NCBI GenBank assembly: GCA_046350735.1
Contig: JAXLZU010000001.1
Coordinates: forward strand, 684,462 to 748,461
Direction: 5' to 3'
DNA: 64,000 bases
DNA from: Candidatus Saccharimonadota bacterium
GTDB taxonomy: Bacteria > Patescibacteriota > Saccharimonadia > CAILAD01 > BJGX01
Of this stretch, positions 13,559 through 17,775 are shown one piece after another; position 1 is the stretch's first letter; each line of letters starts with the position of its first letter. The translations under genes and the position numbers were made by a program. The notes under the pieces are model-generated. The model did no database searches, was not told the origin of the DNA, and saw only the letters and a list, made by a program, of their open reading frames with translations.

Positions 13559-13585
13559 GGGCGCGCAGCTCAGATGGCGAGAAAT
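13559..13585 (+). repeat. Degenerate copy of the first 20 nt or so of tRNA-Ile (gggcgcgCagctcagatggC...). It does not fold into a tRNA.
   Basis: It matches gggcgcgtagctcagatggt of the real tRNA-Ile 110 bp downstream. The rest diverges and no cloverleaf is possible. Confidence 0.4.
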
Positions 13586-13669
13586 GCGTAGCATTTATCC
13601 ATAAACAACAGCTGCGCTCGAATATAGCAAACTTTATAAGTCGTATAGTGTAGAAAATCCCGTAAACGC

Positions 13670-13746
13670 GGGCGCGTAGCTCAGATGGTTAGAGCGCGTC
13701 ACTGATAATGACGAGGTCCCTGGTTCAATTCCAGGCGTGCCCACCA
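13670..13746 (+). tRNA. tRNA-Ile (anticodon GAT), CCA encoded.
   Basis: Cloverleaf read by hand: acceptor GGGCGCG/CGTGCCC, D-arm GCTC-AGATGGTTA-GAGC, anticodon arm CGTCA-CTGATAA-TGACG, T-arm CCTGG-TTCAATT-CCAGG, then ACCA. Confidence 0.9.
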
Positions 13747-13764
13747 GAAAAATATTTACAATAC

Positions 13765-13841
13765 GGGGCATTAGCTCAGCTGGCTAGAGCACCTGCTTTG
13801 CAAGCAGGGGGTCCGGGGTTCGAATCCCCGATGCTCCACCA
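13765..13841 (+). tRNA. tRNA-Ala (anticodon TGC), with the G3:U70 identity pair and CCA encoded.
   Basis: GGGGCAT...GCTC-AGCTGGCTA-GAGC...CCTGC-TTTGCAA-GCAGG...CGGGG-TTCGAAT-CCCCG-ATGCTCC-A-CCA. Confidence 0.9.
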
Positions 13842-13919
13842 TGAATTTATTTGTATCTTAAAGCAACCACCATTAATGCTGGTTTGCTCCTAATTACGAC
13901 TTCGCACAGTCGCATACCC

Positions 13920-14810
13920 ATGTCAACATCCAGCTCATACCATTCAAAGGAAACCCCTGATTCAGTAATCGCATACCAAAGACTCAAGGCTATAACTGAC
14001 GCCGTCTATTCTGGGTCTAAAACAGACTATGGCAAAGATGTGCTGGCCCTCCTCAAAAGCTTCAACATTAGTCCGCGACAAGATGATGGACAGCTAAAGG
14101 CTGTAAATATCTCAATACCAAGTTCCATCTCGGATTCGATAGTGGTGGGCTTGAGGTACGTTAAGAAAGACGGGACTGACACCGAAGATCACTTCCTATT
14201 CAGGAAGGGTGAAAACTTGCGGGCGTTCTATAAAGACGGATTTGAAAAATACGCCCGTGAGTACGCCGGCGCACACAAAGAACAGACTAAAGAGAGGTCT
14301 GAGCCAGTAACCCCTGAGTACGCCGCCTGGATCTACTTGAATTTAGATCTAGCCAAGATCAGTTATGCGCTTGATTGTTACGATCAAATTTTTGAAATTG
14401 TTAATGTTCGAGATGATGCATACAACCTAGCTCTCCAAATACTTCTAGACAGCCTATCGTCCTCAATTGTTGTTGGACTTGCTAGATACTTTGAGAAGAG
14501 AAAAGACAGTTGGGGCCTAGACAAACTTGGAGTTTCAACAAAAGAAGTTTGCGAGCTCAAAGAGAAGTATGACGAATTGATGGAACTACGTCATTCACAG
14601 TTGTCACATCTCAAGAAAGGCAAAGAGTCTAAGTATCAATTCTTCTTCCTAAGCGACAGAGGCACAGAGCTCGCTAGAGAGTTGGTCCAAGAAGTCCATA
14701 AAATGTTGTCTGAAATTGGACGAACGGAATACTCTGGTCAATCCTATGCGCTTACATGGGCGGGAGCAGATACCTCTCTCGAATTGCTGATTGAAAGGCT
14801 TAAGGGATAA
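13920..14810 (+). CDS. Hypothetical protein (about 297 aa from the internal ATG) in the GC-elevated islet next to the tRNAs.
   Basis: The ORF track gives 13851..14810 with a TTG start overlapping the tRNA-Ala 3' end. The first ATG is at 13920 (MSTSSSYHSKE...). No recognisable family. Confidence 0.4.
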   Translation: MSTSSSYHSKETPDSVIAYQRLKAITDAVYSGSKTDYGKDVLALLKSFNISPRQDDGQLKAVNISIPSSISDSIVVGLRYVKKDGTDTEDHFLFRKGENLRAFYKDGFEKYAREYAGAHKEQTKERSEPVTPEYAAWIYLNLDLAKISYALDCYDQIFEIVNVRDDAYNLALQILLDSLSSSIVVGLARYFEKRKDSWGLDKLGVSTKEVCELKEKYDELMELRHSQLSHLKKGKESKYQFFFLSDRGTELARELVQEVHKMLSEIGRTEYSGQSYALTWAGADTSLELLIERLKG

Positions 14811-14858
14811 TTGCGAGCCTTGGCTTTTCCTTGCATCGGCGCGACAATAGATCGTGTA

Positions 14859-15101
14859 ATGCCAAAGTCAGACACCAAACAACCAGGCAAAGATCACTTC
14901 CGTATTCGTCGAGTACGCCAAGAGCTTTATCACGTCACTGATAATCACCACTTTGTGGAGTATCGGACGAGTGATCCCTCACTCTTTCGGCCGAGCAAGC
15001 AAGTCATCCTGAAGCCGACGTACAAGAAAGACGTTGACATGCAGCAACTAGCCGACGCCCTGCTCCGCCTCCTGGAAGACATGAATCAGGATTCTGAATA
15101 G
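14859..15101 (+). CDS. Small hypothetical protein (start uncertain; the ORF track gives 14811).
   Basis: ORF directly after the previous gene, GC about 50%. No recognisable motifs. Confidence 0.3.
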   Translation: MPKSDTKQPGKDHFRIRRVRQELYHVTDNHHFVEYRTSDPSLFRPSKQVILKPTYKKDVDMQQLADALLRLLEDMNQDSE

Positions 15102-15207: not shown

Positions 15208-15567
15208 TTATCGCTGTTTACATTCTCCAATTATCTTATCTAGGGCTAATTTTGTTTCAATAGATTGTGGATCTGCATCAAATTTTTTGGCCTGGTCGTA
15301 TGTATATTTCTGTTTTAATAGCCTATATATACAACTACAATCAGAAGATGAGCTACCCTGAGCTTGACAGCTGGTTAGGAAATTATTTTCGAACTCCTTT
15401 GTGTAGCCCGTGTCTTTATATATATCTTCTAACTTAATATCAATACCTATCGCCAAAACAAAGAAACCCACGATACAGAAAAGAATAATTGCCCACTTAA
15501 CGAGTTGGTGATTCTTCTTTAGTGTTTTAGTGCTTGGCTTATCTGCTATATCATCTGTTGTTGTCAT
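15208..15567 (-). CDS. Hypothetical membrane protein (one TM, Cys-containing C-terminal domain).
   Basis: 119-aa ORF with TM WAIILFCIVGFFVLAIGI. Confidence 0.4.
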   Translation of the reverse strand: MTTTDDIADKPSTKTLKKNHQLVKWAIILFCIVGFFVLAIGIDIKLEDIYKDTGYTKEFENNFLTSCQAQGSSSSDCSCIYRLLKQKYTYDQAKKFDADPQSIETKLALDKIIGECKQR

Positions 15568-15644
15568 ACGTCTTTACTGTAACATATCTGTCGAGTTGGA
15601 TTACAAAAAAATTTCTGATTGAAGTATGTTAGAATATTACTTAT

Positions 15645-15900
15645 GCTTGGTTCGATATTTCTTGGTCTACTTATGATAGTTATTGGTGTTGTAATTGTGG
15701 TGTTTCGACGCAATATTTATAACTTTACCGGCTACATTGACTTCGTAGAAGGTTGGTTCCCCGGGGGAACAAATACGTTTATTCTTTTTTTTGGTCTAGC
15801 CCTTATCTTAATTGGCATTTTCTTTGTTACAGGAATAGGCAACTCTATTACTGCACCAATTACCGACCAACTAAAAGCTGTATTTGGTGGCGTAAAATAA
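15645..15900 (+). CDS. Small hypothetical membrane protein (two TMs). Start is the ATG at 15645, or the TTG at 15619 as in the ORF track.
   Basis: MLGSIFLGLLMIVIGVVIVVF... is hydrophobic. A terminator hairpin follows. Confidence 0.35.
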
Positions 15901-15918
15901 TATAGACAATCTCTACAC

Positions 15919-15949
15919 AAAAAGCACTCAAATAATTCGAGTGCTTTTT
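15919..15949. terminator. Bidirectional rho-independent terminator hairpin (aaagcactc-aaataatt-gagtgcttt) between the small + strand gene and the 3' end of the minus-strand 16S rRNA.
   Basis: 9-bp perfect stem, flanked by A-runs and T-runs. Confidence 0.5.
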
Positions 15950-16127
15950 GTTATTGATCTGTAAAATGTGTCAGCAGACAGTTGTAAATTTGCCCTAACA
16001 ATAGTTAGAGATCGACCTAGAAGTAATCGCAGAATTGGCAGGAGCGACTCAATACATTGAATGCTCAACTACTTTTTCTGGCCTCGACTCTAATGTTCGA
16101 GGAATGCATTGCTGCATTGTTTCTCCC

Positions 16128-17672
16128 TAGAAAGGAGGTGATCCATCCGCACCTTCCGGTACGGATACCTTGTTACGACTTAACCCCAATCGCTGGATTC
16201 AGCGTAGGACCATTAAATGGTACTTCAGCTGCTCCCAACTTTCGTGATTTGACGGGCGGTGTGTACAAGACCCGGGAACGTATTCACGGCAGTATGGCTG
16301 ACCTGCCATTACTAGCAAATCCAACTTCATGAGGGCGAATTTCAGCCCTCAATCCGAACTGGGACCACTTTTGATGCGATTTGCTCCACCTTACGGTTTG
16401 GCAGCGCGTTGTAGTGGCCATTGTAACACGGGTGTAGCCCGAGGCGTAAGAGCCATGCTGACCAGACGTCATCCTCACCTTCCTCCCGGTTAACCCGGGC
16501 AGTCTCGTTAGAAAATATAACTAACGACAAGGGTTGCGCTCGTTGCGGGACTTAACCCAACATCTCACGACACGAGCTGACGACGGCCATGCAGCATCTG
16601 TCACTAGGTTCCAAAAGGCACGTCTTAGTTTCCATAGACTTCCTAGGATGTCAAGCCTCGGTAAGGTTCTTCGCGTAGCTTCGAATTAAACCCCATGTTC
16701 CTCTGCTTGTGCGGGTCCCCGTCAATTCCTTTGAGTTTTAAGCTTGCGCTCGTACTCCCCAGGCGGATCACTTAACGCGTTAGCTACTGAGCACAGAGGG
16801 TCGAATCTCCATACTCATAGTGATCATCGTTTACGGCGTGGACTACCGGGGTATCTAATCCCGTTCGCTCCCCACGCTTTCGTCTCTGAGCGTCAGGTAA
16901 GGCCCAGCAAGCTGCCTTCGCCATTGGTGTTCTTTGCGATATCTACGGATGTCACTCCTACACCGCAAGTTCCACTTGCCTCTACCTACCTCTAGTCTTT
17001 CAGTTTCGGGCAACATCTATATGGTTGAGCCACAAGATTTCGCACCCGACTTGAAAAACCGCCTACAGACGCTTTACGCCCAGTAATTCCGGATAACGCT
17101 TGGACCCTACGTATTACCGCGGCTGCTGGCACGTAGTTAGCCGGTCCTTATTCTTCACCTACCGTCATAATCTTCGGTGATAAAAGCAGTTTACACGCCG
17201 AAACGCTTCATCCTGCACGCGGCATTGCTCCATCAGGGTTGCCCCCATTGTGGAAGATTCCTTACTGCTGCCTCCCGTAGGAGTCTGGGCCGTATCTCAG
17301 TCCCAGTGTGGCTGGTCGTCCTCTCAAACCAGCTACTGATCGTCGCCTTGGTGAGCTTTTACCTCACCAACTAGCTAATCAGACGCAGGCCCCTCCCAAA
17401 GCACATAAAGCTTTAATCCAAATAAATTGGATATTATAAGGTATTAGCTACCCTTTCGGGCAGTTATTCCTTACTTTGGGGCAGGTTCCAACGTGTTACT
17501 CACCCGTCCGCCACTAACAATTTAGTCCTTTAGAGCTTAGTTGCTGGAAGTTAGCGAATATAAAATTCACTAGATTCCAATATCTAAAATCTAATTTCTT
17601 AAAAAGTTCGTTCGACTTGCATGTATTAGGCATGCCGCCAGCGTTAATCCTGAGCCAGGATCAAACTCTCCA
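16128..17672 (-). rRNA. rrs: 16S ribosomal RNA, about 1545 nt, full length.
   Basis: The + strand around 16120 is the reverse complement of the 16S 3' end (...AAGTCGTAACAAGGTA...GGATCACCTCCTTT). Around 17650 it is the reverse complement of AGAGTTTGATCCTGGCTCAGGATTAACGCTGGCGGCATGCCTAATACATGCAAGTCGAACG. Internal universal regions are recognisable (GTGCCAGCAGCCGCGGTAATAC, ACGGGCGGTGTGT). Confidence 0.9.
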
Positions 17673-17714
17673 AAAAAGAAAAGTGATCAAGACCACAAAG
17701 ACAACTATTTCTTT

Positions 17715-17775
17715 TGGCGGCAAGCCGCCAGCGGTCATAATTAGTCCCTGAGCCAGGATCAACCTCTCCAAAAAA
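17715..17775 (-). repeat. Imperfect duplicate of the first 45 nt or so of the 16S rRNA (TTGGAGAGGTTGATCCTGGCTCAGGGACTAATTATGACCGCTGGCGGCTTGCCGCC), located in the rRNA leader about 45 nt upstream of the true 5' end.
   Basis: Direct comparison of 17627-17680 with 17713-17775 on the + strand. Confidence 0.4.

Follow-up and report, generated by a model that had tools for sequence, protein, structure and literature searches.

A second copy of the 16S rRNA 5' end, predicted to pair into a leader hairpin, upstream of an unlinked 16S gene in a Saccharimonadota genome

The DNA considered here is a stretch of 64,000 nucleotides (nt) from Candidatus Saccharimonadota bacterium (assembly GCA_046350735.1, contig JAXLZU010000001.1, positions 684,462 to 748,461 of the forward strand), which is referred to as the window in its full length. 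On its minus strand it carries a complete 16S ribosomal RNA (rRNA) gene, and the leader of this gene contains an imperfect second copy of the gene's own first nucleotides. This copy, which we call S', and its relation to the true 5' end of the gene (S) and to an antisense spacer (AS) between the two are the subject of the present analysis. Upstream of the 16S gene lie gyrB, gyrA and a gene for a DUF212/YuiD-type membrane protein, and the order gyrB-gyrA-DUF212-16S is kept across 26 GTDB species representatives. Homologues of the DUF212 protein, one of which is named Candidatus Saccharibacteria, place the organism among the Saccharibacteria (TM7; Saccharimonadia), within the Candidate Phyla Radiation (CPR). 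Beyond the 3' side of the 16S gene, on the opposite strand, follow an open reading frame (ORF) of 93 amino acids (aa) and a pair of transfer RNA (tRNA) genes.

A copy of the 16S 5' end in the leader

The 16S transcription unit comprises the following features, listed in the direction of transcription; relatives are named by locus labels (L001 and so on) where they have to be told apart.

18054..18083, minus strand: promoter-like site P1, TTGACT-18-TACAAT, kept among relatives (alignment A4)
17988-17957, minus strand: second promoter-like site (P2), TTGACT...TAAATT, kept among relatives
17903..17941, minus strand: 5' strand of the leader-trailer stem, a presumed RNase III substrate, from cofold and duplex predictions; invariant in relatives
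17859..17877, minus strand: boxA-like leader motif TTTCTTTTGAACAATAACG, kept in alignment A4
17776..17801, minus strand: degenerate mini-unit TCTATTTTGAAAAGTTT/ACTTTTCAA, a 14/17 copy of the leader/16S junction (2 of 1000 shuffles)
17719..17775, minus strand: S', which repeats 16S nt 1-48 imperfectly (27/28, 8 extra nt, 15/16)
17715..17730, minus strand: hairpin apex, the perfect inverted repeat TGGCGGC-TT-GCCGCCA, formed by the H4-strand part of S' and its reverse complement
17678..17708, minus strand: AS, a 31-nt antisense spacer abutting the true 5' end, RNA-level complement of S' with many G·U pairs
17677..17774, minus strand: whole 98-nt unit, predicted as one long imperfect hairpin with S' paired to AS (RNAfold -37.1 kcal/mol, z -4.5)
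16131..17676, minus strand: complete 16S rRNA gene (Rfam RF00177 SSU_rRNA_bacteria, 1494 bits, model 1-1533), true 5' end at 17676
15953..15990, minus strand: 3' strand of the leader-trailer stem, from cofold and duplex predictions
15916..15949, minus strand: intrinsic-terminator-like 16-bp hairpin with T-run (RNAfold -20.5 kcal/mol), after the trailer, closing the 16S unit

The gene itself is uninterrupted, the Rfam model aligning contiguously over positions 1-1533 from 17676, and S' lies outside and upstream of it, in a leader that extends for about 370 nt 3' of the promoter-like sites. The leader motif is called boxA-like for its presumed resemblance to the boxA consensus. An earlier note on this DNA, made from the letters alone, had proposed folding leader and trailer in search of an RNase III stem. 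Such a stem is indeed predicted, pairing 17941-17903 with 15990-15953 over about 35 bp and bracketing the 16S, and it is recovered again when leader and trailer of L042, L033 and L006 are cofolded; the duplicated sequence, however, is located outside this stem.

The second copy of the 16S 5' end, also described in that note, is borne out by the alignment of 17775-17719 with 16S nt 1-48. Its 28-mer occurs twice in the window at no more than one mismatch, compared with 0.00 occurrences expected from 100 shuffles. Directly upstream of S', the mini-unit at 17801-17776 gives a hairpin of 9 perfect base pairs around the same TT turn (TTGAAAAGT-TT-ACTTTTCAA), and it sits where the relative L003 has its true 16S start. 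Two further observations concern this junction. Positions 17822-17803, within the leader/16S junction (17822-17670), are also flagged as terminator-like, and in all relatives a hairpin stands directly before the U-run that forms the first 16S nucleotides (TTTTTTGGAGAG), which gives an intrinsic-terminator-like layout at the start of the gene.

S' is found in several independent data sets. It is present in Logan SRR26348419 and SRR26348422, which are 100% identical to the window, in a strain that is ~97% identical (NCBI GCA_964570715.1 as well as Logan SRR25435890, SRR25435982 and SRR25435979), in a strain that is 98% identical (JGI 3300006092, contig L047) and in a sister species (NCBI GCA_009613035.1, L033). 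The three strains carry three S' alleles, namely an ancestral form, U12G and A27G. As the conserved 27F primer site is a frequent break point of short-read contigs, and as L001, L002, L043 and L044 all end at window position 17651, one could suspect that the copy is an assembly artefact or a chimera formed at this site. Contigs from four independent sources (L042, L045, L047 and L033), however, cross both copies into the 16S gene, the S' copies differ from each other by allele-specific substitutions, and S' also differs from the true 5' end and can thus not represent a collapsed or expanded exact repeat. Because independent spanning contigs carry differing S' alleles, an assembly artefact is excluded as far as assemblies show, and we regard this explanation as practically negligible.

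From a practical point of view, the copy places the 27F/8F primer site twice at this locus, with 0-1 mismatch. Full-length amplicons can hence start 98 nt upstream of the gene and resemble chimeras or insertions, and short-read assemblies tend to break at the duplicated site.

Pairing, distribution and origin of the copy

The equivalents of the 98-nt unit in the strain L042 and the sister species L033 fold in the same manner (RNAfold -34.5 kcal/mol, and -31.9 kcal/mol with z -3.9, respectively). When S' and AS are treated as two separate strands, the duplex energy amounts to -26.7 kcal/mol with z -4.4 to -4.75 (RNAduplex). As the corresponding DNA alignment of AS with the reverse complement of S' is not significant, this pairing is specific to the RNA strand and rich in G·U. 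G·U pairs account for 7/34 of the pairs in the S':AS helix, and most of its non-Watson-Crick positions are G·U rather than mismatches. The predicted hairpin ends at position -1 relative to the true 5' end and occupies the place of the last leader hairpin of the relatives.

The earlier note had offered two readings of the copy, namely that it pairs with the 3' flank of the 16S for processing, or that it represents a scar of the rearrangement which broke up the rRNA operon. All that speaks for either of them is that both features occur together in one locus. The duplex energies of S' with the trailer (z -0.3) and with the 16S 3' end (z -0.6) are not above those of shuffled sequences, and the real leader-trailer stem is formed elsewhere and is conserved, so that the first reading fails. 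The second does not agree with the distribution of S', which is confined to one species (window, L001/L002, L042-L045 and L047) and its sister species (L033). No second 16S start copy was found in about 20 relatives whose locus reaches the 16S start, some 17 more distant ones included, and these are equally unlinked. The congeners L003, L031 and L006 are among them, although their leader is otherwise 86-95% identical to that of the window and their 16S 98.6-100%, and a search by eye and by regex through the 150 nt that precede the 16S of each relative also revealed no diverged S' copies. It follows from the absence of S' in equally unlinked relatives that the duplication is much younger than the unlinking and not its scar. 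As judged from this distribution, the origin of S' lies within a single group of genus level and postdates the separation of 16S and 23S by a long time, and taken together we consider the two readings of the earlier note highly improbable.

The layout is not restricted to this genus. We scanned 241 million metagenome records for two 16S-start 14-mers lying 65-95 nt apart, a search that targets 16S starts only, in a collection that is incomplete, as the JGI contig L047 was not returned. The scan yielded eight stretches, of which five are unrelated tandem repeats, one belongs to the sister species and two are new (L036 and L037). In L036 the period is 105 and the copy is identical to 16S nt 1-52, and in L037 the period is 109 with at least two identical leader units. 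The 16S genes of L036 and L037 reach no more than 76% identity to any Saccharimonadia locus and, with lengths of 1651 and 1907 nt, are CPR-like. In each of them, what lies between the copy and the true start is predicted to be antisense to the copy (z -4.9 in L037, z -2.0 in L036), and the whole unit of L037 folds with -54 kcal/mol (z -7.5). As far as these predictions go, the S'-AS-S layout is common to two unrelated CPR-like lineages. With regard to L037 (Ga0190348_1006418), it should be added that the contig begins inside a tandem array of identical 109-nt pseudo-5'-end units, and that the second unit could be an assembly loop.

From our point of view, it is rather probable that S' stems from a partial duplication of the fold-back type, whose arms stay paired with one another and are lost along with the leader. 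A fold-back, or template switch, at the leader/16S junction would have inserted a partial duplicate in the order S' - turn - AS - S, with AS stopping one nucleotide short of the true 5' end. Since transcription passes S' and AS ahead of the genuine 5' end, they would pair co-transcriptionally into one long, G·U-rich hairpin. In this paired state the S' decoy could not compete for the partners of helices 1-4, the AS arm could not trap the real 5' end, and the hairpin would eventually be removed together with the leader at maturation. The perfect palindromic turns TGGCGGC-TT-GCCGCCA and TTGAAAAGT-TT-ACTTTTCAA fit an origin of this type. A simple tandem duplication of a contiguous block of leader and 16S was also considered and rejected, since at the DNA level neither the leader nor 16S nt 44-130 is significantly similar to the spacer.

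Several observations weigh against this interpretation. No homology of the spacer could be detected, either to the leader upstream or to 16S nt 44-130, and the similarity of AS to the reverse complement of S' is not significant at the DNA level, so that the element may also go back to a tandem duplication or to recombination. Furthermore, two of the four strain differences in the leader, taken over roughly 430 nt, fall within the 28 nt of S' that copy bacteria-wide conserved 16S positions, and such substitutions look like relaxed constraint. In a 4-sequence alignment, compensatory changes on both sides of a pair are absent, and in L033 the middle helix is for the most part disrupted, so that covariation gives no support to selection for the pairing. 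Lastly, the presence of S' and the two types of upstream hairpin are distributed incongruently among the congeners, and recombination may have moved the S' element among them.

The same observations could be accommodated by a purely neutral scar, i.e., a duplication that arose by slippage or fold-back in a portion of the precursor which is discarded, and that was never selected, with the hairpin being an inverted duplication which decays under AT-biased mutation. The missing compensatory changes, the broken middle helix of L033 and the substitutions at 16S positions that are highly conserved across bacteria speak for such a scar. The copy is also rare and sporadic, with three genuine cases among the eight stretches of the scan and none in the nearest congeners, and the two identical tandem units of L037 are typical of unstable repeats. 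On the other hand, a count on alignment A6 puts the identity of the S' core in the window species and L033 at ~93-95%, with the apex and the part that does not derive from the 16S taken in. This is similar to the rest of the pre-rRNA leader (90-94%), whereas neighbouring coding DNA is only ~80% identical. AS is heavily diverged in L033 but still pairs with S' (z -3.8), and the deviations from Watson-Crick pairing are mostly G·U pairs. In addition, all three independent cases possess the antisense arm and a bare tandem copy was not encountered. Pairing is also retained by both within-species substitutions of S' (U12G and A27G), and in L033 an extra A in the copy is placed opposite an extra U in AS, according to our reading of two predicted folds. 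We consider an entirely unselected scar less probable than the reading given above, but a serious rival to it.

At the other extreme, one could speculate that the element is a dedicated cis-acting device, in which S', AS and S form a three-part switch that times the release of the genuine 5' end for helix 1 and the central pseudoknot, or, alternatively, in which the long hairpin provides a second RNase III cleavage site at the mature 5' end. In silico, AS can also be paired with S (z -1.8 for the window, -2.8 for L033, -4.4 for L037 and -2.0 for L036), the hairpin ends at position -1, the layout recurs in three deep lineages, and competition between leader and helix 1 is an established principle (PMC8201178). 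However, the element is dispensable, as congeners with a 16S that is 98.6-100% identical and with the same leader lack S'. The pairing of AS with S is moreover only marginal in the window, covariation is absent, and the recurrence is partly a matter of ascertainment, as the search was aimed only at 16S 5' ends. We therefore consider both versions of the device, taken jointly, unlikely, and the same low probability is assigned to the broader proposition that the triplet of copy, antisense and true 5' end is a selected, convergent co-transcriptional switch or local RNase III site that has arisen at least three times (this genus, L036 and L037). If this were true, a decoy 5' end would titrate the leader antisense and the genuine 5' end would be released only once it has been transcribed, and this in CPR bacteria, which possess only one rRNA operon and whose complement of assembly factors is reduced.

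The unlinked 16S gene, the tRNA pair and other features of the window

No match to the large subunit (LSU) rRNA or to 5S rRNA was returned by Rfam across the whole window, which covers 16 kb downstream and 46 kb upstream of the 16S and so includes the 1.5-2 kb downstream of a complete 16S on which an unlinked arrangement is judged. The 16S gene is thus unlinked from 23S and 5S, as the earlier note had stated, and the description of its 3' side as a terminator followed by small genes is likewise supported by the terminator-like hairpin at 15949-15916. The small ORFs near the 16S gave no match in Pfam, PADLOC or PHROGs. A 23S gene after the 16S was found in none of seven Saccharimonadia relatives whose loci reach 3-8 kb past the 16S. 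The unlinked 16S is the normal, old and clade-wide state and no peculiarity of this genome.

In terms of its sequence, the 16S of the window is 98.6-100% identical to that of L033, L031, L006 and L003, while the neighbouring genes are just 73-81% identical at the DNA level; the DUF212 genes of L033, L003 and L031 are each ~78-81% identical to that of the window. Such near-identity would reflect either a very slow divergence of the 16S or an exchange of rRNA genes within the genus. A stronger version, namely exchange of the 16S between distant genomes, was toned down, as L033, L003 and L031 are alike both in DUF212 (~78-81%) and in the 16S (98.6-100%). As the 16S is near-identical across these genomes, these species would not be told apart by it. 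The congeners differ in their 16S mainly in helix 6 / V1 (17640-17520), which is long and AT-rich in this genus.

The features on the tRNA side of the locus and two more distant ones are as follows.

13502..13530, plus strand: promoter-like site of the tRNA-Ile/tRNA-Ala unit, TTGAAA-17-TACAAT, kept in L006
13559..13619, plus strand: tRNA-like leader element of 61 nt, its first 24 nt matching the tRNA-Ile 5' end at 21/24, with an acceptor-like closing stem
13670-13746, plus strand: tRNA-Ile(GAT) (ARAGORN, Rfam), convergent to the 16S
13765-13841, plus strand: tRNA-Ala(TGC) (ARAGORN, Rfam), convergent to the 16S
13842..15167, plus strand: strain-specific insertion of 1326 bp between tRNA-Ala and its terminator, with two ORFs of 319 and 96 aa
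9700-10701 and 10695-12206, minus strand: ORFs of a split Peptidase_S74 / collagen-repeat gene
61571-61969, minus strand: transfer-messenger RNA (tmRNA) gene (Rfam 100.5 bits), not reported by ARAGORN

The two tRNA genes are adjacent, like the Ile(GAT)/Ala(TGC) pair that normally occupies the spacer between 16S and 23S on the same strand, yet here they lie opposite to the 16S, at a distance of 2.3 kb from its 3' end, and no 23S follows. The claim that this spacer-type pair possesses its own promoter on the opposite strand agrees with the promoter-like site at 13502-13530. The distance of 2.3 kb that had also been reported is correct as measured in the window, but 1.3 kb of it is due to the strain-specific insertion. 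In the strain L042, the terminator directly follows tRNA-Ala and the 1326-bp insertion is lacking, from which it follows that the ancestral distance between the 16S 3' end and the tRNA pair is ~1 kb. L006 and the distantly related L019 share the convergent arrangement. The tRNAs are co-oriented with the 16S and lie 0.3-1.8 kb downstream of it in L022, L025 and L018 (for L018, tRNA-Ala and a second tRNA that is cut off), and in L014 and L015 no tRNA-Ile/tRNA-Ala pair was found within 4-5 kb.

The insertion is flanked by a 9-bp direct repeat, GCTCCACCA, which corresponds to the tRNA-Ala 3' end and occurs at 13833-13841 and 15168-15176. Its two co-oriented ORFs (319 and 96 aa) have no match in Pfam, PADLOC or PHROGs. 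The identity to the strain L042 amounts to 97.3% on one side of the insertion and to 99.93% on the other, and the insertion may be a small integrated element or mark a recombination breakpoint.

The tRNA-like element at 13559-13619 lies between the promoter and tRNA-Ile and thus inside the tRNA transcript, and it is nearly identical in L006 despite differing flanks. By chance, 0 matches of the quality of its 21/24 agreement with the tRNA-Ile 5' end are expected. It was called neither by ARAGORN nor by Rfam, where matches were at chance level only, and it is probably a degenerate tRNA duplicate that has been kept as a leader structure. As such, it is the second case in this window of a copied 5' end upstream of a gene for a stable RNA.

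Some observations from the wider window and from the relatives are recorded here in their own right. At about position 10709, a Peptidase_S74 / collagen-repeat gene of 835 aa is divided into two ORFs (503 and 333 aa) by a single-base deletion relative to the strain L042, which could be a real pseudogene, a case of phase variation or a sequencing error. The records L025 (titled 'Candidatus Nanoarchaeia archaeon'), L019 and L020 ('Candidatus Parcubacteria') show a DUF212 homologue followed by a bacterial 16S that is 75-83% identical to that of the window, and their titles are probably taxonomic mislabels. L025 further contains a match to the c-di-GMP-II (cyclic di-GMP) riboswitch at 9646-9731.

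Comparison with known systems

Unlinked rRNA genes have been described for CPR/Patescibacteria and for other bacteria with small genomes (Brewer et al., bioRxiv 10.1101/705046; Lui et al. 2021, PMC8172020), and a non-contiguous rRNA operon is reported for TM7x (PMC12424978). The present locus shares with these cases the separate 16S unit with its own terminator and the genes on the opposite strand thereafter, and nothing essential differs. Lui et al. (2021) scored their two Saccharimonadia genomes as operonic, whereas a 23S gene within 3-8 kb after the 16S was present in 0/7 of the relatives considered here.

The bracketing of the 16S by complementary flanks corresponds to the leader-trailer stem of bacterial pre-16S rRNA, in that a long complementarity (~35 bp) is present and conserved in relatives. 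Its cleavage is presumed in our case, and S' takes no part in it. The copy itself may be compared with the alternative pairing between leader and helix 1 in Escherichia coli pre-16S rRNA, as modelled by Dammel and Noller together with a role for RbfA, in the account given by PMC8201178; a competition with helix 1 that is resolved by such a factor is known from work on E. coli only. In both organisms a leader segment, here AS, lies beside the mature 5' end, and AS may likewise be antisense to the 5'-terminal nucleotides, with marginal pairing in the window. Unlike in E. coli, however, an upstream sense decoy, S', is available here and is the better partner of AS, and the element is lineage-specific and dispensable. 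We know of no factor on which the S'-AS element would depend.

Duplications caused by template switching or fold-back (quasipalindromes) give rise to direct-inverted-direct repeats. The S'-AS-S unit has the same succession of copy, perfect palindromic turn (7 bp), presumed inverted arm and original, with the difference that this arm is recognisable only through RNA pairing with G·U.

Our literature searches retrieved no described duplication within a 16S leader. Unlinked 16S genes with displaced spacer tRNAs are already known for the group, and the copy of the 5' end, predicted to be locked in a hairpin, is a new variant of rRNA leader structure. In itself, it is a small evolutionary curiosity of modest interest. 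It does, however, offer a natural experiment on the leader-guided folding of the 16S 5' end, as the decoy with its predicted hairpin is present in some and lacking in other close relatives whose 16S is near-identical. Lastly, 16S genes of CPR bacteria carry insertions or intervening sequences (Brown et al. 2015, as cited in 10.1101/705046), and the element described here resembles them in being an extra structured sequence, but it is located upstream of a complete and uninterrupted 16S and not inside of it.

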